Below are positions 2,961 through 17,133 of a DNA stretch of 64,000 nt, in pieces (position 1 is the stretch's first letter; each line of letters opens with the position of its first letter). The stretch is from NCBI GenBank assembly GCA_022797215.1, contig JAAWKD010000004.1:5191-69190 (forward strand), given 5' to 3'. The position numbers and the translations under genes are program-made. This DNA is from Clostridia bacterium. Lineage in GTDB: Bacteria > Bacillota > Clostridia > TANB77 > CAG-508. The notes under the pieces were generated by a model. The model searched no databases, was not told the origin of the DNA, and saw nothing but the letters and a program-made list of their open reading frames with translations.

Positions 2961-3130
2961 ATACTACAAATATTATGTACAGTAAAATTATAAAAGCAAT
3001 TTTAAGCTACATATTCGACACATTAAAAGCAAAAAATTAAGAAATAAACATAAAAAACAAATAAAATCAACAGTTATATACATAAAGTTGTCATTTATAA
3101 GAAACTTTTTCAAGACAAAAAAAATAAAAG

Positions 3131-3268
3131 TTGACACAATCTTAACAACTTTTTACAATAATTGTATATTTCTTTCAAAAGCGCTCAACTTACATTTTGC
3201 GCAATAAGGTGTATATAGAATATAAGGTTTTGAGCCTATTTCTAGGCTCTTCCCCTTTATTGTTTTTG
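3131..3268 (+). ncRNA. Orphan promoter-to-terminator unit, candidate small RNA of about 100 nt
   Basis: TTGACA (3131-3136), 17 nt spacer, TACAAT (3154-3159). Hairpin GAGCCTATTTCTAGGCTC (3232-3249) is followed by a T-rich run. No convincing ORF in between. Confidence 0.25.
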
Positions 3269-3289
3269 CTTGTATAACCCTATTAAAAA

Positions 3290-4657
3290 TTATTTCATAT
3301 TTTTTAAAAATAAAGCCATTTTTTCTAAAAATTCTTGATTGGTTTTAGTATTCATAATTTCTGTAATCAATTCTTCTGTTATATCTGCTACTGACATCGT
3401 TGACATTGCTTTTCTTAAAGCAAATACAGTTTCTAATTCTTTTTGCTCTAATAATAATTCTTCACGTCTAGTTCCAGATTTGTTAATATCAATTGCAGGG
3501 AAAATTCTCTTTTCTGATAGTTTTCTGTCTAAATGTACTTCCATGTTGCCTGTTCCTTTAAATTCTTCAAAAATAACATCATCCATTCTACTACCTGTTT
3601 CAATTAATGCTGTAGCTAAAATAGTTAGGCTTCCCCCATTTTCTATATTTCTTGCTGCTCCAAAGAACTTTTTAGGTTTATGTAAGGCACTAGGATCTAA
3701 ACCACCTGATAATGTTCTACCAGAAGATGGAATAACTAAGTTATATGCCCTTGCCAAACGAGTAATACTATCTAATAAGATAACAACATCTTTCTTTTGC
3801 TCTGTCAATCTTTTGGCTCTTTCTAATACCATTTCTGCCACTTTAACATGATGCTCAGGTAATTCATCAAAAGTAGAATAAATAACATCTCCTTTAATAC
3901 TTCTCCTCATGTCTGTAACTTCTTCTGGGCGTTCATCAATTAATAAAACAATTAATTCTATCTCTGGATTATTAGTTGTAATACTATTAGCTATCTTCTT
4001 TAGAAGTGTTGTTTTACCAACTTTTGGTGGTGCTACAATCATACCTCTTTGCCCTTTTCCAATTGGTGACATTAAGTCAATTATTCTCATAGCATATTCT
4101 GTTGGCAATGTTTCTAAACGAATTCTCTCATTGGGATAAATCGGAATAAGATCATCAAATTTTGTCCTTCTGTAAGCTTTTTCAGGAGCTTCACCATTTA
4201 CTTCTCCTACATAAATAAGTGCTGGAAATTTCTCGCCTTCTTTTGGAAGTCTTGAAATACCTTTTATTTTATCTCCCTTGTCCAACCTAAATCTCCTAAT
4301 TTGAACAGGTGAAACATAAACATCTTTTGGTGTAGATAAATAGTTTTCTCCCCTCAAAAAGCCATATCCATCTGGTAATACTTCTAAAATACCTTCTACA
4401 ATTTGGTCATCAGCATTAGTTACCTTGTATCCACCCTCAGTATCATTATTAGATGTTTCTTCTTTTATATTTTCTATATAATTATCTTCCTCTATGTTTT
4501 GTAGCTCTAAATTTTCTATAGGCTTTCTTTCATCTTTACCTTCGATATTAGATAGCTCTTGGATTAATTCCTCTTTCTTCATTTTTGAAGTGTTCTTTAT
4601 TCCTCTTTCTTTTGCAATTTGACGTAATTCTACTAATGTACAATTTTCAAACTCCAT
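3290..4657 (-). CDS. rho: Transcription termination factor Rho
   Basis: 455 aa. N-terminal SAP-like [17 protein letters not shown]-binding [14 protein letters not shown], Walker [12 protein letters not shown]-terminal [19 protein letters not shown]. Confidence 0.96.
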
Positions 4658-6134: not shown

Positions 6135-6863
6135 TTATTCTTGCACAATACTACCTTTATTATCATTAAAAGTAGATTGAACAATAATTTTAATGCCATA
6201 TTTTTTAGCTATTCTCACACATCTATCATGCAATACTTTGGCACCACTTTGTGCCAAACTATCCATATCTTCATATGAAATGATATCTAATTTTTTAGCA
6301 TCAGAGTATTTATTAGGATCTTTATCATAAATACCATCTGTATCAGTAAAAATATAGCATTCTTTTTGATCTAGTGCAGCAGCTATTGCAAGTGCACTGG
6401 TATCTGATCCGTTTCTTCCCAAAGTAGTAATGTTTCTTTGTACATCCATTCCCTGAAATCCTGCAATTACAACCACATCTTTTTCTTCTAATTCTTGCCA
6501 TATTCTAGTCGGACGAATTTCTTGTATTTTTGCTTGTGTATAGTCTTCATTTGTTATAATTCCTGCTTGTTCTCCTGTTAATGAAATAGCCTTATATCCC
6601 ATTTCATTTAAAAGAATAGCAAACTTACTAATAGATATTTGCTCTCCTACAGATAATAGCATATCTAATTCTCTTTTATTTGGATTTTTGCTTAATTGTT
6701 TAGCTTCTGTTAGTAAAGTATCTGTTGTTTTTCCTTGTGCAGATAAGATAACTACTGCCTTTTGTTTTTCTTTTAAAAACTGAATTGTCTTTTGTGCTGC
6801 CTTTCTTAAATTTTCATCATTAGCAAGTGAACTTCCCCCAAATTTAACAACTTTAATATTCAT
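6135..6863 (-). CDS. Amino-acid kinase family protein, aspartokinase-like catalytic domain without ACT domains (242 aa)
   Basis: N-terminal VVKFGGSSLA and internal GRNGSDTSA motifs typical of aspartokinases. The protein ends before any regulatory ACT domain. Confidence 0.6.
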   Translation of the reverse strand: MNIKVVKFGGSSLANDENLRKAAQKTIQFLKEKQKAVVILSAQGKTTDTLLTEAKQLSKNPNKRELDMLLSVGEQISISKFAILLNEMGYKAISLTGEQAGIITNEDYTQAKIQEIRPTRIWQELEEKDVVVIAGFQGMDVQRNITTLGRNGSDTSALAIAAALDQKECYIFTDTDGIYDKDPNKYSDAKKLDIISYEDMDSLAQSGAKVLHDRCVRIAKKYGIKIIVQSTFNDNKGSIVQE

Positions 6864-6973
6864 AAGATCATGTCCTTATATAAAAAATATACAAGCCAAT
6901 TTGATTTCAAATTTGACTTGTATATCATATGTGATATAATGTAAAGTAGTTAATTTAATTTTTAGGAGTTTTT

Positions 6974-7963: not shown

Positions 7964-9071
7964 CTATTTTTCCACATTATTTTTCAAATAGCTATCAATA
8001 AATCCATCCAACTCACCATCCATAACTGCTTGCACATTTCCTACTTCATAGTTAGTCCTATGGTCTTTTACTAAAGTGTAAGGGCAAAATACATAAGAAC
8101 GAATTTGACTGCCCCATGCAATATCCATTTGAATTCCTTTTAATTCTTCGATTGTATCCTTTTGTTCTTTTTCCTTTAAGTTTAATAACTTAGACTTTAA
8201 CATTTTAAGTGCTGTATCTTTATTCTGGAATTGAGAACGCTCTGTTTGACAAGCTACAACAATTCCTGTTGGAATGTGTGTTAATCTTACTGCAGATGAA
8301 GTCTTATTAATATGTTGTCCTCCTGCTCCTGAAGCCCTATACACATCCATTTTAATATCATCTGGATTAATATCTAATTCAATATCATCTGTAATTTCGG
8401 GTAACACTTCTATAGAAGCAAAAGAAGTATGTCTTCTTCCTCCACTGTCAAAAGGGGAAATTCTAACCAAACGATGTACTCCCATTTCTCCTTTTAAATA
8501 GCCATAAGCATAATCTCCATTAACGGAAAATGTAACACTTTTAAGACCTGCCTCTTCACCTTCTAAATAGTCTAACTCTTTCAATTCATATCCATGTGCA
8601 TTTGACCATCTACTGTACATTCGATATAGCATTTCGGCCCAATCTTGAGCCTCTGTTCCCCCTGCTCCTGGATGAATAGTAATAATAGCGTTATTGTTAT
8701 CGTATTTTCCTGATAATAAGGTAGTAATTTCTAGTTTTTCAATCTCTTTTTCACTACTAGAAGTAGATCTAATAACCTCTTTAGCCATTTCTTCATCTGG
8801 CTCTATTTCTAATAATTCATTCATTTCCAAAATATTGTTTAATTCTATTTGAAGTTTTTTGAACCCATCTATTTTAGATTTTATCCCATTAATTTTTTTT
8901 AATACTTTTGAACTATTTTCAGTATCATTCCAAAAGTTGTTATTCATAGTTTGCTCTTCTAAAAGTTTTAATTCTTTCTCTTGATTTACTACATCAAAGT
9001 GAATCACCTATCTTTAGCAATCTATCTTTTAAATCTTGCAGTTTTCTAGTATTTTCTTCAAGTTCTATCAT
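7964..9071 (-). CDS. prfB: Peptide chain release factor 2, with programmed +1 frameshift (frame 0: 9071-8997; +1 frame: 8995-7964)
   Basis: ATG at 9071 gives 25 codons, MIELEENTRKLQDLKDRLLKIGDSL, ending CTT TGA T (8999-8993). An SD-like AGGTGAT lies 3 nt upstream. The +1 frame continues DVVNQEKE... and contains SPF and GGQHINK(T) motifs. Confidence 0.95.
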
Positions 9072-9155
9072 TACTATTTTCACCCCTTTTTTATACTAAA
9101 ATAGTCTATTTTTTCCTATCATATCACTAAAATCTACAACAATCAAGTTACTTTT

Positions 9156-9184
9156 TTGACATTTTATGTTAAGTATGCTATAAT
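9156..9184 (+). promoter_or_regulatory. Consensus sigma-A-type promoter of the 9239 ORF
   Basis: TTGACA (9156-9161), 17 nt spacer ending TGC, TATAAT (9179-9184). Confidence 0.6.
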
Positions 9185-9238
9185 AGTATTAATCTTAAGC
9201 GTAGAAATGCGTTTTATATTACTAGGGAGGCTTACACC

Positions 9239-9724
9239 ATGTCTATTTTCAAAATCAATTCTCGCATCCGTCAGGTCGGTACCTTTCTGAAGGTCAACCC
9301 CAAGAAGTTCCACATCATCTTTAAAAGCACCAGCGAAAGCTTTTTCCTCAATCCGGGGATCGCTCTGAACTGGACAGATGAGTTGGATATGCAGGAGCTG
9401 GACATTATCCTGCAGCTTCTGGACATTTCTGGCAATGGTTGGCAGGATGAACTACTCGGCAAAAAGGCTTGCTTGATTGTTGAGAGTAAGGAACATGACG
9501 ACGGCACGCTCGGCATTGAGATTAAGGCAATTGGACGCCCTGAGAAAAAGCAGAAGAAAACCAAGGACAAGAAAAACCAAGAAGCAAAAGACACCCAGAA
9601 GACAGACATCGATGTTGATGAAGAGGAAAACAGCCTCAACGGCATGTTCCTTGTTCTGAACAGCGGAGTCCAGCTACTTCCTTACGAGAAAGCCATGGAG
9701 CTTATCGAAAAGAAGAAGCATTAA
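9239..9724 (+). CDS. Hypothetical 161 aa protein encoded by a compositionally foreign (higher G+C, CTG/AAG-rich) gene
   Basis: AGGGAGG RBS 8 nt upstream, own promoter and terminator. About 43-47% G+C by hand count against very AT-rich flanks. Lys/Glu-rich linker (EKKQKKTKDKKNQEAKD). No family recognised. Confidence 0.65.
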   Translation: MSIFKINSRIRQVGTFLKVNPKKFHIIFKSTSESFFLNPGIALNWTDELDMQELDIILQLLDISGNGWQDELLGKKACLIVESKEHDDGTLGIEIKAIGRPEKKQKKTKDKKNQEAKDTQKTDIDVDEEENSLNGMFLVLNSGVQLLPYEKAMELIEKKKH

Positions 9725-9756
9725 TTACAACAGTATCACGCAACTTATCCTAGCAA

Positions 9757-9789
9757 GAAGAGGCGATTGGTAATCGCTTCTTCTTTTTT
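9757..9789 (+). terminator. Rho-independent terminator of the 9239 ORF
   Basis: GAAGAGGCGATT-GGT-AATCGCTTCTTC stem-loop followed by TTTTTT. Confidence 0.7.
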
Positions 9790-9795
9790 GAATTT

Positions 9796-10290
9796 TTAAG
9801 GATAATCATTTTGGAGTTTTTTTAGAGCATGTACCCCCTTTTCTCCTTCAGCTGCAAATATTGCTACATAACCTGAATTCATTTCTATTCCTAAACCGAA
9901 TTTATTTGGAAATTCCTTTTCTTCAGGTGGTGCCTTATCATATTTAATATCTTTTCGATACTTTTTCACGGCAAGAAAACCACATATCGCACTAATAGCA
10001 GACAGTAATAATCCCCATAAAGTTGTTTCTAATAAATAAATAGAAAAAATCCCTGTAATTATACAAGTAATTGTATATCTTTTTATCCAGCTATTTTTAT
10101 TATATTGTTCCATAGATTCATATTGTTTCTTTGCTTCCTCATATTTTAATTTTTCTATATCATGAGCTTTTTTCTCTTTATTTTGAAATCTAAAAATCCA
10201 AGTTCTTGATATATTCGAAATTTTTAAAATTTCGTTTCCATAACATATACTATTTTTATCAATCTCTATATTACTACTAAACTTTGCCAC
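9796..10290 (-). CDS. Hypothetical membrane protein (164 aa, two central TM helices)
   Basis: ORF with hydrophobic segments ITCIITGIFSIYLL and WGLLLSAISAICGFLAV; no family recognised. Confidence 0.45.
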   Translation of the reverse strand: MAKFSSNIEIDKNSICYGNEILKISNISRTWIFRFQNKEKKAHDIEKLKYEEAKKQYESMEQYNKNSWIKRYTITCIITGIFSIYLLETTLWGLLLSAISAICGFLAVKKYRKDIKYDKAPPEEKEFPNKFGLGIEMNSGYVAIFAAEGEKGVHALKKLQNDYP

Positions 10291-10324
10291 ATCTATTTCC
10301 TCTATTTTCTTTTATAACTATTCT

Positions 10325-10819
10325 TTATAGCTGATTTAATGTCAAGTATTTTTCTAATGCATCTACATTCATAATAAAGAACTTATTTCGATTATTTCTT
10401 AGTAATTCTGCTAACTCTTCAATTGCTATCCATCTAATATGCCTTGACTCATTAGTTTCTGTTACAGGTTCTCCTTCTGCTTCACAGATAAAATGATTAC
10501 ATATTATTGAATATGCATTTTCTAAGTTTTGTGTCACACAGAAGGGCATAAAATTTATTGTACTAGTTTCTTCACTATATTTCTTTTCCTCTTCTCCATA
10601 TATCTTAGTAACCTTTAGCCCAGTCTCTTCAAACACTTCTCTTCTTACTGTATCATAAGCATCTTCATATTCTCTTATTTTTCCTGCTGGTAATTCATAT
10701 AAGCCATTCGTTTCGTCTCCATCTTCTTTCCATCTTTCTTGAACAATAATATGCTTTTTACCATTTATCTCTCTTTCTACAATGGCTCCTATAGCAGGTT
10801 TTGCAAACTTTTCTTCCAT
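10325..10819 (-). CDS. NUDIX hydrolase
   Basis: Nudix box GKIREYEDAYDTVRREVFEETGL. Confidence 0.8.
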   Translation of the reverse strand: MEEKFAKPAIGAIVEREINGKKHIIVQERWKEDGDETNGLYELPAGKIREYEDAYDTVRREVFEETGLKVTKIYGEEEKKYSEETSTINFMPFCVTQNLENAYSIICNHFICEAEGEPVTETNESRHIRWIAIEELAELLRNNRNKFFIMNVDALEKYLTLNQL

Positions 10820-10864
10820 TTTATCTCCAACCTTATTAATTTATTTTAATGAGCTTAAAACCTA

Positions 10865-11002
10865 TCAATAACTTAAATTTTATAATAGCAAAATGCTGAC
10901 ATTGGCATTTTTACTTCTGCCAGTATTTACTTGCAATATGCTATTAAATGAACTTTCTTCTATTTTCCACAACAGTTCTTATACTTCTTTCCTAAACCAC
11001 AA
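10865..11002 (-). pseudogene. Displaced remnant copy of the secA 3' end and its downstream region
   Basis: Aligns by eye with 14241-14358, with one roughly 25 nt indel. It retains [13 protein letters not shown]-stop, against [15 protein letters not shown]-stop in the real secA. A stop lies just upstream, so it is not a gene. Confidence 0.65.
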
Positions 11003-11224
11003 GCTCTCAAAAGCAAAAAAATTTTGTCTTTTCTTCAATTTTATTAACCTTTGCTATCGCCACAATCTTGCTTAGGACAAAGAACATTTAAAGTTTATCA
11101 TCATTTATTAACATTTGTTATCTTTTATCAAAAGTTACTTAATAATGACAAATTGCCGACAATATTATCTTTTTATTTATAATATCTTATTTTTTCTTTT
11201 TACACAATAGTTTAAATATAAAAA

Positions 11225-11722
11225 TTAAATATTCTTTTTATCCAGATATTCTAAACACTTTTTTTCTAACTTTTTAAAATCACATATATTAAATCTTTTT
11301 CTACTTACTTCATTTAATCCTAATTTATATACTTGATTTGCTAACTTTTTAATCTTCTCTCTATTTATATTACAATAGTGTAATTCTTTTCTTAATAAAA
11401 CTTGATACTTTTCATCTTCTTTAGAAAAATCTTTTTGATTTAAGTATTCTATTGGACATGGAAACATAAAAGAAAATCTTAATGAAGATATCGGTTTTAG
11501 TTCTTTTGTCTTTTTATCTTTATCCATAATTAAAAATGTAGTATGAGCCTTTTTGTTATAAGAAGAAACTGGAGCAAAATAATTAAAATTATTTATTGTA
11601 AGTACTATTCCACAAAAGAATTTTTTATGTTTTTCATATTCAATATTAGGAATCTTATTATCACCATTTTCTTTTAAATATTTTATATATTCAATATCTA
11701 CTTCATAAAATTTTAATTTCAT
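11225..11722 (-). CDS. toxN: Type III toxin-antitoxin system ToxN/AbiQ-family endoribonuclease toxin
   Basis: 165 aa. MKLKFYEVDIEYIKYLKENGDNKIPN, FFCGIVLTINNFNYFAPVSS, LRFSFMFPC and NICDFKKLEKK align with my recollection of ToxN (KFYTISSKYIEYLKEFDDKVPN, FIGIVLEIQGHKYLAPLTS, LKFMIPI, CNFSLLEEK). Confidence 0.8.
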   Translation of the reverse strand: MKLKFYEVDIEYIKYLKENGDNKIPNIEYEKHKKFFCGIVLTINNFNYFAPVSSYNKKAHTTFLIMDKDKKTKELKPISSLRFSFMFPCPIEYLNQKDFSKEDEKYQVLLRKELHYCNINREKIKKLANQVYKLGLNEVSRKRFNICDFKKLEKKCLEYLDKKNI

Positions 11723-11794
11723 TGCAACATCTCCTTATAACATAAAAATGAGGATTAAAACCTAAATTTTAACCCCCATCAATTAAATTATGCT

Positions 11795-11925
11795 ATTTTG
11801 TTTTGAGTTAGCATTAACTCGAATATATTGTTCACTATATTTCATGAGGTGTGAAACCTCGAATATATCGTTCGCCATTTTTGATTGAGTTGCGAAACAC
11901 TCGAATTATAAATAGCTATTCTCTT
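11795..11925 (-). ncRNA. toxI: ToxI/antiQ-like tandem-repeat antitoxin RNA (about 3 units of 40-42 nt)
   Basis: The plus-strand motif CTCGAAT(A/T)TA recurs at 11818, 11858 and 11900, each preceded by (T)TGAG(G/T)T..GAAAC. A hairpin plus T-run (about 11740-11775, minus strand) separates the repeats from toxN, as in ToxIN loci. Confidence 0.55.
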
Positions 11926-12017
11926 TTAGTATATTTATTATACTATTTTTTTATTCATTATGTCAATAATTTCAAGAAAATTTATTATATTTTACAGATC
12001 CCATTTATTGGTGGGGA

Positions 12018-12647
12018 TTACCTTATTTCTATATTGTTTTCTTTTAAAAGTTCTATTACATCATCTGAATCATTAGAATTGACTCTTCTTCCATTTATTC
12101 CAATAAAATTTGCAACTTCTAAAGTTTTATTAGTATCGTCATCATCAATTAGTATACATTCTTCGGCATTTAGAGAATATCTTTCCAATAGTAATTCAAA
12201 TATTTTTGAATCCGGTTTTTTTATTCCTTCATATGCAGACACAATTGCTCCATCTACCATAGTGAAAAATTCATATTTTTTAGAAAAATATTCAAAAGTA
12301 GCTTTTGACATATTTGACAAAATATATATGTTATAACCTTTTTGTTTTAACCTCTTTCCTATTTCCATTGTTTCAAAATTTACATTACATTTAGTAAACC
12401 AATTTAGCATAAAATTTTCAACTTCATCATAGTTGGTTACATCTACAAGTTTTTCTTCTTTTATAGCATTCGCTATTTCTAAATTATTCATTTTTCCTAA
12501 GTCCATTAGTTTCCAAAATTCTGACTTGAAAATATATTCGTTAAAATTTATGGCATCTTTTTCTTCTTTAAAAAATTCTTTTACTATCTCTATATTGGGA
12601 TTTTGTACAATTACATTACCCAAATCGAAAATTATATTTTTTATCAT
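12018..12647 (-). CDS. HAD-superfamily hydrolase
   Basis: N-terminal IIFDLGNV (DxD-type motif I), GIKKPDSKIFELL and ILIDDDDTN motifs. Confidence 0.8.
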   Translation of the reverse strand: MIKNIIFDLGNVIVQNPNIEIVKEFFKEEKDAINFNEYIFKSEFWKLMDLGKMNNLEIANAIKEEKLVDVTNYDEVENFMLNWFTKCNVNFETMEIGKRLKQKGYNIYILSNMSKATFEYFSKKYEFFTMVDGAIVSAYEGIKKPDSKIFELLLERYSLNAEECILIDDDDTNKTLEVANFIGINGRRVNSNDSDDVIELLKENNIEIR

Positions 12648-12725
12648 ATTTACCTCGTATAATTAAAACATACAAAATATCGTAATTATACTCTCCTTTC
12701 TTTTTAAATTTTGTATAATATATTT

Positions 12726-12800
12726 GCACTGTGGATTTGTTCCTATTTTTCTACAGCTTTGACTGTTTTTGGAGGCTCAAACCACAGATTTTTTATTTTA
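12726..12800 (+). ncRNA. Candidate IS110 bridge/seek RNA in the left non-coding end
   Basis: TGTATAAT extended -10 at 12712-12719. Long-range stem CACTGTGGATTTG (12727-12739) pairs with CAAACCACAG (12778-12787), enclosing internal loops, then ATTTTTTATTTT. Confidence 0.35.
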
Positions 12801-12915
12801 ATTGTTGATTAGTTAGTTAACACTTTGATGTTTTATTATAATCGCGAGGATACAAGGTAGAAAGTTTTGTGGCAAACAAACAGTGCTAAAAATCTAACCA
12901 AGGAGGTGCATGTAT

Positions 12916-14076
12916 ATGATATATGTTGGAATAGATATATCTAAATACAAACACGATTGTTTCATCTGCAATGACTTAGGTGAAATTATCGTAGAAAACT
13001 TATCTTTTGAAAATACTAAAAAAGGATTTCAACAATTTCTTGATTTGCTGAAACCCTATGATAACTCTAATGTCCACATCGGTTTAGAAGCTACTGGACA
13101 TTATGGTTTGAATTTGAAATTGTTTTTAGAAAAAAACAATTATACTTTTATGGAATTTAATCCTCTTTTAGTTAAAGAATTTTCTAAATCTTTATCTTTA
13201 AGAAAGACTAAAACTGATAAAGTTGATGCAATGACCATTGCTCAAAAACTTTTATCTGTTCCATATAAGCCAAATTCAAAACTATTTTATCATAAATATT
13301 CAATGAAATCACTATCTAGATTAAGAGAAACTTTAGTTAAGCAAAGAAGTAAGTATATGGTTCAAATGACTAATGTTCTTGATATTATTTTTCCAGAATT
13401 TAAACCTTTCTTTAGCAATAGATTTTCAGCTACATCTTTGTATATCCTTGAAAAATATAAATCACCAGATAAAATTGCTAATATGAAAGACTTTGATACT
13501 TTAAAATCATTATCTCGTAGTCATTTTACTTATTCAAAATTCATTAAATTAAAAGATTTAGCTAAAAACACCATTGGAGAATCTAATGAAGTATTTGAAT
13601 TACAATTACAAATTCTTCTTAATCTGTATAAAGAAATTGATATTAAAATTGATTCAATAGATAATCAAATTTCTACAATTGTCAAGGAACTTAATCCACC
13701 AACGCTTTCTATTCCAGGAATTGGTGTAAATTCTTGTGCTACAATCATTTCTGAATTTGGAGACATTTCTAAATTTCCTAATCCTAGTAAAATGCTTTCT
13801 TTTGCTGGATTAGAACCAGGTATTATTGAGTCTGGTACTATGTCTTCAAAAGGAAAAATGGTTAAGCGTGGTTCTGGCTATTTATGCTATGCTTTAATGA
13901 ATGTAGCAATGGTTGTTATTGCAAATAACCATATATTCTATGACTTTTATTTTAAGAAACGTACTGAAGGTAAATGTCATAGAGTTGCTTTATCTCATGT
14001 GTGTAAAAAACTAATTAGAGTTATTTACATTCTTGAAACTAAAAATATATCTTTTGATCCATCTTTATTAAGATAA
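12916..14076 (+). CDS. IS110-family transposase
   Basis: N-terminal IYVGIDISKYKHD (DEDD/RuvC-like domain), C-terminal IPGIG...FGDISKF...FAGLEPG...SG... motif. The AAGGAGG RBS favours the ATG at 12916 over 12910. Confidence 0.85.
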   Translation: MIYVGIDISKYKHDCFICNDLGEIIVENLSFENTKKGFQQFLDLLKPYDNSNVHIGLEATGHYGLNLKLFLEKNNYTFMEFNPLLVKEFSKSLSLRKTKTDKVDAMTIAQKLLSVPYKPNSKLFYHKYSMKSLSRLRETLVKQRSKYMVQMTNVLDIIFPEFKPFFSNRFSATSLYILEKYKSPDKIANMKDFDTLKSLSRSHFTYSKFIKLKDLAKNTIGESNEVFELQLQILLNLYKEIDIKIDSIDNQISTIVKELNPPTLSIPGIGVNSCATIISEFGDISKFPNPSKMLSFAGLEPGIIESGTMSSKGKMVKRGSGYLCYALMNVAMVVIANNHIFYDFYFKKRTEGKCHRVALSHVCKKLIRVIYILETKNISFDPSLLR

Positions 14077-14314
14077 ATCAATTTATCTTAAATCTTTAAA
14101 AAAATTAATTTTTAAAGATTTATTTAGCATGCAAATTTTTTAATAAAAAACTTTTTTAATTTTTTTCGGAAATAACTATTGACTTTTAATAGTTAGCCTC
14201 TAATTTTGTCGATTTATTTGTATACTCTATCTAAAAACTGTCAACAACTTAAAATTTAGGATGACAAAATGCTGACATTTGCCTTTTTTACATCTCTGCA
14301 ACCGCTGTAATAGG

Positions 14315-17056
14315 CTATTTTCCGCAACAATTCTTATACTTCTTTCCTGAACCACAAGGACAAGCGTCATTTCTTCCTACATTTGGTGCAGTATTAACAA
14401 CTGTCATATTTCCACCTGATTTTCTAGGAGCTTGTGTATCTAAATCTCTTAATGTATCTTCAAATCCTTCTCCTGTAATTTTGACTGAAGTTGTTCTTTG
14501 TAAGTTCTCTTCTCTTTTTCTAGCATTCATCAAGAATTTGATAACATCTGTCTGAATATCTAAATTCATTTGGTCAAACATGTCTGCCCCTTCCATTCTG
14601 TATTGAACAACAGGGTCTTTTTGACCATAAGCACGAAGACCAATACCATTTTTCAGTTCGTCCATTGCCTCAATATGGTCCATCCATCTATCATCAACAA
14701 TTTTTAACATAATAACTCTTTCAAGTTCTCTCATGTTATCGCTACCTATTTCTTGTTCTTTTTGCTCATAAATTTGATGTGCTTTTTCTTTTAGTTCTTG
14801 AGTTACTTCATTTAATACAATCTTATCTTTTTTAGTAGACTCTAATTCTGTAATACCAAAGTTAATAGCTATTTCTTGCATAAATGCATCCAAATTAAAA
14901 TCGGCTACTTCTGATAAGTATTCCATAGCGGTATCTTCCACTAAATTATCTATCATATTTAATACATTAGTCTTTAAATCTTCTCCATCAAGAACTCTTC
15001 TTCTTTGATCATAAATAGTTCCTCTTTGAACATTCATAACATCATCATATTGTAGAACATTTTTACGAATACTAAAGTTTTGTCCTTCTACCTTCTTTTG
15101 AGCAGTTTCTACTGCATTAGAAAGTAATTTAGATTCTAGTGGCATATCCTCGTCTGCACCCAATGTGTTATATACTCTAGTAATCGCATCTCCACCAAAT
15201 ATTTTCATTAAATCATCATCTAATGCAATATAAAACCTTGACTCTCCTGGATCTCCTTGACGTCCACTACGTCCACGAAGCTGATTATCAATTCTTCTAG
15301 ATTCATGTCTTTCTGTACCAATAATCTTTAGTCCACCTGCTGCAAGTACCTTTTCTTTTTCTTCTTTAATTTCTTGATTAAATTTCTCTTCTAGCTCTTT
15401 GAATTTCTTTCTTGCCTCTAAAATATTTTGATCTTGTGTTTCATTAAAAGCTGTTGCTTGTTCTAGTTGTTCTTCTGTATATCTTTGTCTTCTCATTTCT
15501 TGTTTTGCTAGATATTCACTATTACCACCAAGCATAATATCAGTACCACGACCTGCCATGTTTGTTGCAATTGTAACAGCTCCATATTTACCTGCTTGTG
15601 CAATGATTTCAGCTTCTTTTTCATGGAATTTAGCGTTTAATACTTCATGTTTAATTCCTTCTTTTTTTAGCAAGTTACTCAATTTTTCAGATTTTTCAAT
15701 AGAAACTGTACCAACTAGAACTGGTTGTCCTTTTTCATGACTTTCTTTAATATCTTGAATCACTGCTCTAAATTTAGCATCTTCATTTTTATAAATGATA
15801 TCATGATGGTCATCACGAATCATTGGCTTATTGGTTGGAATTTCAATAACATCTAAATGATAGATTTCTTCAAATTCCTCTTCTTCTGTCATCGCAGTAC
15901 CAGTCATACCAGATAACTTATCATACATTCTAAAGTAGTTTTGGAAGGTAATGGTTGCAAGTGTTTTAGATTCATCTGCAATTTTAACATGTTCTTTTGC
16001 TTCAATTGCTTGATGTAGTCCATTATTATATCTTCTTCCATACATGATACGTCCTGTAAATTCATCTACAATTAATACTTCTCCATCTTTTACGATATAA
16101 TCAATATCTTTTTTCATAATACCATGTGCTCTTAAAGCTTGGTTAACGTTATGCACTAATTCAGAATTTTCAATATCATTGAAGTTTTCTAAATTAAATT
16201 CTCTTTCTGCTTTTTCAATACCCTTTTGTGTCAAAGAAGCTGATTTTGCCTTCAAATCAACAATGTAGTCATAGTTTTCATTGTCTTCTGCTTGTTCTTC
16301 ATCTTTTAAATCTTCTTCTACAATAACTTTTGGTGTTAGTCTTCTAACAAAGTTATCAGCCTTTTTATATAAATCTGATGACTGTGTTCCACGTCCAGAA
16401 ATAATAAGTGGTGTACGAGCCTCGTCTACTAAAATACTATCAATTTCGTCAACGATAGCATAATTTAATTCTCTTTGAACTAATTGCTCTTTGTAAATAA
16501 CCATATTATCTCTTAAATAGTCAAAACCAAATTCGTTGTTAGTACCATAAGTAACATCTGCATGGTATGCATCTCTTTTAGCCTCTGGTTCCATTCCTGC
16601 AACAACTAGTCCTACTGTTAATCCTAAAAATTTATATACTTTTCCCATCCATTCACTATCTCTTTTAGCTAGATAGTCATTAACTGTAATTACATGCACA
16701 CCTTTTCCTGTTAGAGCATTCAAATACACAGGTAATGTAGCAACTAATGTTTTACCTTCACCTGTTTTCATTTCTGCAATTCTTCCTTGATGAAGAATAA
16801 TACCACCAATTAATTGGACATCAAAGTGTCTCATTCCTAATACTCTTTTTGATGCCTCTCTAACAGTTGCAAATGCTTCTGGTAAAATGTCATCTAAAGT
16901 TTTACCTTCTTCTAATTGCTTTTTAAATTCTACTGTTTTGCCACATAATTGTTCATCTGTTAATTTTTGAAATTCTTCTTCTAAACTGTTAATCTTCTCT
17001 ACAATTGGCTTTACTCTCTTTACTTCCTTTTCACTGTATGTTTTAAATAATCCCAT
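14315..17056 (-). CDS. secA: Preprotein translocase ATPase SecA
   Basis: [14 protein letters not shown] Walker [30 protein letters not shown]-terminal zinc tail [15 protein letters not shown]. Confidence 0.97.
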
Positions 17057-17133
17057 TGCTTTCATCCTTCCTAACTTTAATCATAATATTCTTTGTTACT
17101 ATATCACTTTTGCTAAAAAATCGCAAGGAAAAT

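Follow-up and report, generated by a model that had tools for sequence, protein, structure and literature searches.

How did a block of defence and accessory genes come to lie between two copies of the 3' end of secA, when the only recombinase gene within it encodes an IS110 transposase? The question is raised by a stretch of 64,000 nucleotides (nt), here called the window, from a Clostridia bacterium (GenBank assembly GCA_022797215.1, contig JAAWKD010000004.1, positions 5,191 to 69,190 of the forward strand), in which an intact secA (14315-17065, reverse strand) is followed by an IS110-family element, a gene for a HAD-family hydrolase, a toxIN module and a second, decayed secA tail. An earlier note on this DNA, made from its letters alone, had suggested the integration of an island that supplies a replacement secA end, and had pointed to the missing recombinase as a puzzle. 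Our analysis favours, at a probability of roughly 0.85, the view that the two copies are attL- and attR-like scars of at least one tyrosine-integrase element that inserted into the last ~42 nt of secA. Integration with a replacement end is upheld by an integrase found in relatives and by a shared breakpoint; the idea of a single element is not, as the block appears to be a mosaic. The puzzle would be resolved by loss of the integrase, the IS110 element, which is indeed the only recombinase present, being a later passenger.

The duplicated secA end

The resident copy consists of the secA tail (13 residues and the stop codon; 14315-14358), which makes up the final 44 nt of the gene and the attL-like shared core, and of a secA-downstream segment of 114 nt (14201-14314). 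Its distal counterpart comprises a pseudo-secA tail, also of 13 residues and a stop codon, with the attR-like core (10960-11003; nhmmer E 3.7e-10) and a decayed secA-downstream segment (10847-10959); all four lie on the reverse strand. A repeat search aligned 10856-10912 with 14232-14288 at 82% identity and the two tails (10960-11003 and 14315-14358) at 93% (41/44). In a gapped local alignment of 10855-11003 with 14231-14358, 106 of 126 columns are identical (84.1%), with a score of 91 against a null of 17.2 +/- 2.4 (maximum 26; n=2980 random windows from the same 64 kb), and MAFFT also recovers both copies. The repeats lie where the earlier note had placed them (14241-14358 and 10865-11002) and are slightly longer, running over 10847-11003 and 14219-14358; its estimate of ~85% identity stands, and its single indel gives way to five gaps, of 1, 11, 1, 1 and 9 nt. 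A search of the whole 1.98-Mb assembly returned the partner copy as the sole other match (E 1.5e-14), with no third copy, so that the repeat is not a dispersed one and a generic, genome-wide REP-like repeat can be dismissed.

The island is flanked by direct repeats in which the 3' end of its target gene is contained, and secA itself has apparently been kept intact by an element-borne replacement end, encoding 916 amino acids (aa) with the Pfam domains SecA_DEAD, P-loop_SecA, SecA_SW and SecA_PP_bind and the C-terminal SEC-C zinc motif. The distal tail had been described as a decayed SEC-C tail with no open reading frame (ORF) upstream, and this is accounted for by an in-frame stop 11 codons upstream of the Cys. 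Its identity with secA falls to 20% in the 30 nt upstream, within a non-coding island-side flank of ~220 nt (11004-11224) that has no secA similarity, carries stops in the secA-sense codons upstream of the tail and holds no significant repeats according to repeat analysis.

The origin of the two tails was traced by comparison with other genomes of the genus (G labels; G000 is the window's own genome, C denotes contigs, L loci and X mouse-gut runs). Between the window and its closest relatives, identity is 76-79% for the resident secA tail and ~90% for the secA body; both window tails are 71-81% identical to those of G008, G010, G042 and G022, a group whose tails match one another at 88-98%. 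The window tails have TCA/TTA as the Ser codon and the relatives AGT, and this, together with the divergence of the tails, is consistent with a swapped-in tail. Over its distal part, the proximal downstream segment shares 84-87% identity with that of G008, G010, G042 and G055, and the distal copy is only 54-64% identical to every other copy, which makes it the most diverged of all and points to it as the older, decaying one.

Tail duplications and a secA-linked integrase in relatives

Nine extra partial secA tails were found in seven other genomes of the genus (G019, G023 with two, G044, G050, G049 with two, G009 and G005:C53), and a tenth at a contig start (G062:C92). They lie downstream of secA, mostly ahead of prfB, at 2.5 kb from secA in G019, 3.1 and 7.4 kb in G023, 5 kb in G044 and 11.9 and 12.6 kb in G049; G050, G009, G005:C53 and G062:C92 have one extra tail apiece. 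All keep the 13-residue end, start at the same Cys codon and diverge from secA just upstream. Across 16 copy pairs, drawn from the genus genomes and from the named loci described below, the identity of the 42-nt tail is 0.69-0.98 and that of the 30 nt upstream of it is 0.20-0.47 in 15 pairs, the breakpoint being shared by independent insertions. In addition, five distal copies from different genomes have in common an island-side flank, ATAAAGTCTTC, directly before TGTGG, which appears to be a conserved element end.

Right behind the middle tail of G023 lies a 127-aa ORF with an Arm DNA-binding domain, and a genus search with this ORF found N-terminal remnants of an integrase gene (int) directly after the secA stop in G023, G049, G044, G050 and G019, mostly with internal stops. 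Intact int genes, co-directional with secA, follow the secA stop in G041 (424 aa) and G005 (436 aa), and the secA-linked integrase has the domains Arm-DNA-bind_4, Phage_int_SAM_3 and Phage_integrase. When named genomes were scanned with the G041 integrase at a cut-off of at least 60% identity, 62 loci were obtained, 50 of them with enough upstream sequence; a secA tail lies 215-247 nt (median 228) before the int start in 49 of the 50, and the sole exception is a truncated int. The 62 loci come from metagenome-assembled genomes labelled Clostridia, Bacilli, Mollicutes, Erysipelotrichaceae, Clostridium sp. CAG:914 and Coprobacillus sp. CAG:605; in some of these hosts the C-terminal region of SecA is just 35-45% identical to that of the window, and the integrases are 72-79% identical. 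Elements bracketed by tails are found at L101 (2.6 kb), L109 (5.8 kb) and L077, and also at L133. A second layout (L133, L125, G009:C22 and G005:C53) has an int 40-47% identical that reads into the distal tail, with an HTH_17 Xis-like gene ahead of int in G005:C53. The cargo of intact elements includes TnpV, ParA/ParB, a thioester/SpaA adhesin and a second recombinase. Among named proteins, the integrase comes closest to the integrases of Paenibacillus larvae phages (36.6% identity), and among solved structures to the 'Int protein' of PDB 6emy (E 6e-8), which we take to be the Int of Tn1549.

These findings bear on a different account of the distal tail, namely that it was acquired non-site-specifically, by homology-facilitated illegitimate recombination or transformation, as part of a foreign secA-end-NUDIX-prfB segment that was anchored in prfB and joined randomly downstream of toxIN, the breakpoint at 11003 being accidental. 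An integrase is absent from the window, close relatives show a highly mosaic secA-prfB interval, and G055 carries the C-terminal half of HAD and ToxI next to secA at 89% identity to the window, against 83% for secA, so that exchange by flanking homology does occur here. However, the breakpoint falls within a few nt of that of at least nine independent copies elsewhere, and a join made at random would not end at that one Cys codon; moreover, those copies are tied to an integrase family with the 49/50 secA-tail association. An accidental join is therefore considered unlikely, and insertion by a tyrosine integrase is preferred.

The spacers between secA and int are rich in iterated sites, of the TGCAAACA, TACAAACA, GTGGACAA and TTGACAAA types. 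An 8-mer is present at least three times in 43 of 51 spacers, and an exact 7-mer pair at 11-nt phasing in 43/51, against 30 of 1020 shuffles (3%). The proximal copy in the window bears a cluster at 14239-14277, TGTCAGCATTT-TGTCATC followed after a gap of ~20 nt by GTTGACA, which amounts to two TGTCA sites 11 nt apart and an inverted TGACA. The window has a single instance of this pair-plus-inverted layout, against 0.01 expected, and the genome has four, the reversed control giving zero. The cluster may represent putative arm-type integrase sites in a layout typical of this integrase family; the repeat core singled out in the earlier note, AAAATGCTGACATT, is the reverse complement of its first two sites. 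In the distal copy, sites 2 and 3 of the cluster are mutated (TGCTA and TGATA).

That mutated state is relevant to the proposal that the distal copy was retained for a function, as a terminator or insulator after toxN or as a promoter element of the neighbouring NUDIX gene. Its position between the 3' end of toxN and the NUDIX start would suit such a role, and in related secA-downstream segments a GCTGACAT...ATGTCAGC hairpin precedes a T run. In the distal copy, however, the hairpin arms as well as two of the three TGTCA sites are mutated, the divergence exceeds that of any other copy (54-64% identity), and a function would not account for the origin of the duplication, which makes retention for function very improbable.

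Other observations concern the same sites. A prophage on contig C47 of the window's own genome has an intact 418-aa integrase, 47% identical to the secA type, and is located at the 3' end of a rumA-like methyltransferase gene; its cluster, TGTCAACCATTTGTCAACC...GTTGACA (G000:C47:2916-2954, L055), lies 25 nt from the int 3' end and is identical to the window's cluster at 31 of 39 positions. Given a cluster 79% identical, this integrase could conceivably still bind the island that lacks int, although this is less likely. Two other matches to the layout (G000:C36:9884-9925 and G000:C72:10373-10414) are alike (TGTCAG...TGTCAG...CTGACA). In G062 (L049, G062:C8, ~6300-6345) the secA ORF ends inside the tail region and the tail frame has an in-frame stop upstream, which points to a frameshift at the att core or to a join made there in assembly; SecA may lack the zinc motif there. 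SecA C-termini after CCG vary (K-stop, KNA-stop, RNQ-stop and KN-stop; L042, L043, L047, L050, L052, L053) and displaced tails show the same variants, as would fit a rewriting of the C-terminal residues of an essential protein by mobile elements.

A late IS110 insertion and mosaic cargo

The IS110-family element (1544 bp; 12657-14200, forward strand) encodes a transposase at 12910-14076 with the Pfam domains DEDD_Tnp_IS110 and Transposase_20, has CCTC at both junctions and is inserted 15 nt from the HAD start codon. In G008 the HAD gene stands directly against the secA-downstream segment, uninterrupted (...ATATTTGCCTCTACTTTTGTCG...). In contigs of two independent mouse-gut studies (X7 and X10), 12652 is joined to 14197, so that precisely 1544 nt are missing and the joint is ambiguous by 4 nt; the distal copy, toxIN and the HAD 3' end are covered by further contigs from these runs. 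A third study yielded the IS-containing form, with 4 differences in 4.3 kb. The right end of the element is fixed by its multi-copy relatives in the same genome, which all end in ...AATAGTTGGTCTC, beyond which their flanks are unrelated. The IS110 element has no link with the duplication and arrived later, between the HAD start and the secA-downstream segment.

A causal role of this element was nevertheless weighed, since it is the only recombinase in the block, its right end at 14200 is near the left limit of the proximal copy, and NCBIfam calls the family IS110 RNA-guided transposase: it could have made or captured the duplication, with a bridge RNA targeting the repeat core and the repeats acting as target or donor sites. 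Against this stand the junction of HAD and secA without the element in G008 and the contigs lacking it from two studies, with same-run contigs covering both repeat copies. Moreover, the ends of the element (12657 and 14200) abut neither 11003 nor 14358, where the repeats end, and the flanks of the multi-copy relatives are unrelated. The earlier note had looked to guide loops matching the repeat core, an expectation that failed: the longest match between the core and the 5' non-coding region of the element is 5 nt, no better than chance, and the core lies >60 nt from the element's end. The longest matches of the 5' region to the true target flanks are 7-8 nt; in AT-rich DNA, matches of 5 nt and of 7-8 nt are to be expected by chance, so that bridge-RNA loops could not be assigned. 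An Rfam scan of 9000-15000 at E<=1 gave zero matches, so that neither ToxI nor a bridge-RNA family was recognised. An IS110 origin of the duplication is barely credible.

With regard to the family itself, the palindromic right-end motif TAACTATTGACTTTTAATAGTT (14173-14194 in the window) recurs in a multi-copy IS110-family relative that ends in ...GGTCTC; this relative lies at no fewer than six contig ends of the window's own assembly (L011-L016) and at many more elsewhere in the genus, and thus breaks assemblies.

The gene content that had been noted between the copies was recovered in full. The HAD-family hydrolase gene (12018-12647; Pfam PF00702/PF13419) is followed by ToxI-like antitoxin RNA repeats (2.2 x 40 nt, TRF score 117; 11817-11906), which lie upstream of toxN, and by the gene of the ToxN/AbiQ type III toxin (11225-11722; Pfam PF13958 1e-32, PADLOC AbiQ 1e-31), all on the reverse strand; a ToxN-fold toxin preceded by tandem antitoxin RNA repeats is the arrangement of a type III toxin-antitoxin system. 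The HAD protein is 91% identical in amino acids to its orthologue at the same junction in G008, where it is accompanied by neither toxIN nor a distal tail. The 0.78-kb toxIN module is found, at ~80% identity, at unrelated loci in G017, G007 and G040 with no secA tail nearby, and is therefore not diagnostic of the element. These comparisons indicate that the window block is a mosaic, of HAD and a separately mobile toxIN, and not one clean element. In the gap between ToxI and HAD, an AT-rich stretch (11919-11972) is matched at 82-96% by ~50-nt segments in many genomes across the genus, several of these segments lying where contigs end, but its matches within the window's genome are weak; a promoter common to these genomes, or one end of a small mobile element, could account for it.

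On the other side of the distal copy lies an adjoining NUDIX hydrolase gene (10325-10819, reverse strand; Pfam), with an orthologue in G042 (82% aa identity) and a truncated form in G022, then a 164-aa gene of unassigned family (9796-10290) and, farther along, prfB (7964-9007). In relatives the cargo between the copies differs and includes AbiE, a GNAT-DUF402 protein, an ABC transporter, CopZ/CopA and small genes of no assigned function. The secA-prfB interval of G023 holds an AbiEi/AbiEii pair (L045, G023:C26, 13283-14702), and that of G008 encodes a 441-aa protein matching the PADLOC candidates PDC-S64, HEC-08 and DUF3644 (L037, G008:C11, 5636-6961); the interval acts as a defence-gene hotspot. 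A conserved pair of small genes (137 aa and 101 aa, the latter with a weak DUF4406 match) occurs in the interval of two species (L042 of G019, 3087-3820; L059 of G055, 6201-6933).

Order of events and relation to known systems

If a tyrosine integrase was responsible, its target would be the last ~42 (42-44) nt of secA, coding for 12 residues of the SEC-C zinc motif, and the crossover would lie at, or just 3' of, the Cys codon. The attP of the element would bear its own secA tail and downstream region; integration would rebuild an intact secA and displace the older tail to the opposite end of the island, where it would decay. Repeated integration would lead to tandem arrays between secA and prfB, and tandem accretion is seen directly in G023 and G049; loss of int would then freeze the cargo in place. 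In the window, the distal copy was most likely an earlier proximal att site, because it also carries a decayed site cluster. It would once have been the secA-proximal att site of an earlier resident element, into which a later element integrated; deletions would then have removed both integrase genes, and IS110 would have been inserted later.

Several observations weigh against this account. A tblastn search of the window at E<=10 detected no integrase remnant, an integrase gene beside one att site is found in relatives and not in the window, and the best homologue of the secA-type integrase elsewhere in the genome is 47% identical and sits at another site. With no secA-type integrase in the window or in the rest of the genome, the mechanism is inferred from relatives, and the ToxIN-HAD block, having no integrase remnant beside it, would be a fossil. 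Both window tails are of the same non-resident type, so that two integrations or gene conversion would be needed. Exact k-mer iteration is not significant in the proximal, distal and island-side segments of the window. Relatives without the block had been expected to show secA followed directly by sequence of the distal type, and no exact empty-site allele was found among them: in G022 the secA-downstream segment runs into the truncated NUDIX gene, which tells against it as an empty site, G042 and G010 have two other genes in the interval, and G008 has HAD and two other genes. No excision product was seen for any member in the assembled contigs, none of which spans a usable empty site.

A candidate joint and an exact match were set aside. 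A joint of 10983 to 14352 in run X13, considered as an empty site, has 23 nt on one side and 13 foreign letters and was attributed to a relative's conserved tail; an 18-nt exact match between the HAD start region and the L116 and L127 spacers is AT-rich and was judged to be due to chance.

SGI1, which integrates at trmE, is an example of a genomic island that has the 3' end of a conserved protein-coding gene as its target (PMC6531882, PMC2297512). As in SGI1, the secA elements have a tyrosine integrase, a target within tens of bp of the 3' end of a housekeeping gene, flanking direct repeats and tandem arrays at one site; they differ in their target, the SEC-C tail of secA, in their uncultured low-GC gut Firmicutes hosts and in their integrase lineage, and the window further differs in having lost its integrase and in a cargo of defence and housekeeping-type genes. 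Among dusA-specific integrases, one clade is tied almost exclusively to one protein-coding gene across many species (PMC4482086). A near-exclusive link to a single gene across many species and an element that restores the interrupted gene end are likewise seen here, although dusA elements occupy the 5' end of their gene and secA elements the 3' end. Integrases of tRNA and tmRNA genes reportedly show a sublocation preference, a subject said to have been treated by Williams in Nucleic Acids Research in 2002. As with these integrases, the identity block would run from the crossover to the target 3' end, which is why displaced copies all start at one position; the secA target, in contrast, is protein-coding and constrained at the amino-acid level, not by RNA structure. 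The secA integrases also resemble the heterobivalent integrases of Firmicutes phages and conjugative transposons in their Arm-binding N-terminal, SAM-like core-binding and catalytic domains and in the iterated sites beside int, but share <40% identity with them and have another target specificity. The window's insertion sequence, for its part, resembles IS110/IS621-type RNA-guided DEDD transposases in having both Pfam domains, a short CCTC core at the junctions and no long target duplication, but it did not make the secA duplication and is a passenger.

The mechanism would thus be an ordinary, known one, and the secA SEC-C tail appears to be an undescribed target: no report of secA as an attachment site was found in full-text literature searches, which is not proof that none exists. 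A broader proposal can be advanced only tentatively, doubt slightly outweighing confidence, namely that the SEC-C tail is an undescribed, protein-constrained attB used by one integrase clade (72-79% identical) in ~60 uncultured gut Firmicutes species with very divergent SecA, and that the secA-prfB interval is a general accretion site. The site would be preserved across such distant hosts because the target encodes a conserved zinc-binding motif. If true, secA-prfB would be a general accretion site for defence and accessory genes, and the compact int/attP pair would offer a means of site-specific insertion into bacteria that are hard to engineer.

Taken together, these data would explain an island with att-like repeats and no matching recombinase as the fossil of a well-understood process, separate from IS110, and they describe an integrase family that, in many uncultured gut bacteria, is linked almost exclusively to the secA 3' end. 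In these organisms the secA-prfB interval would be a predictable place for defence genes, such as ToxIN/AbiQ, AbiE and the PADLOC candidates, and the preserved site may help the annotation of islands in metagenome-assembled genomes and possibly serve as an integration tool.

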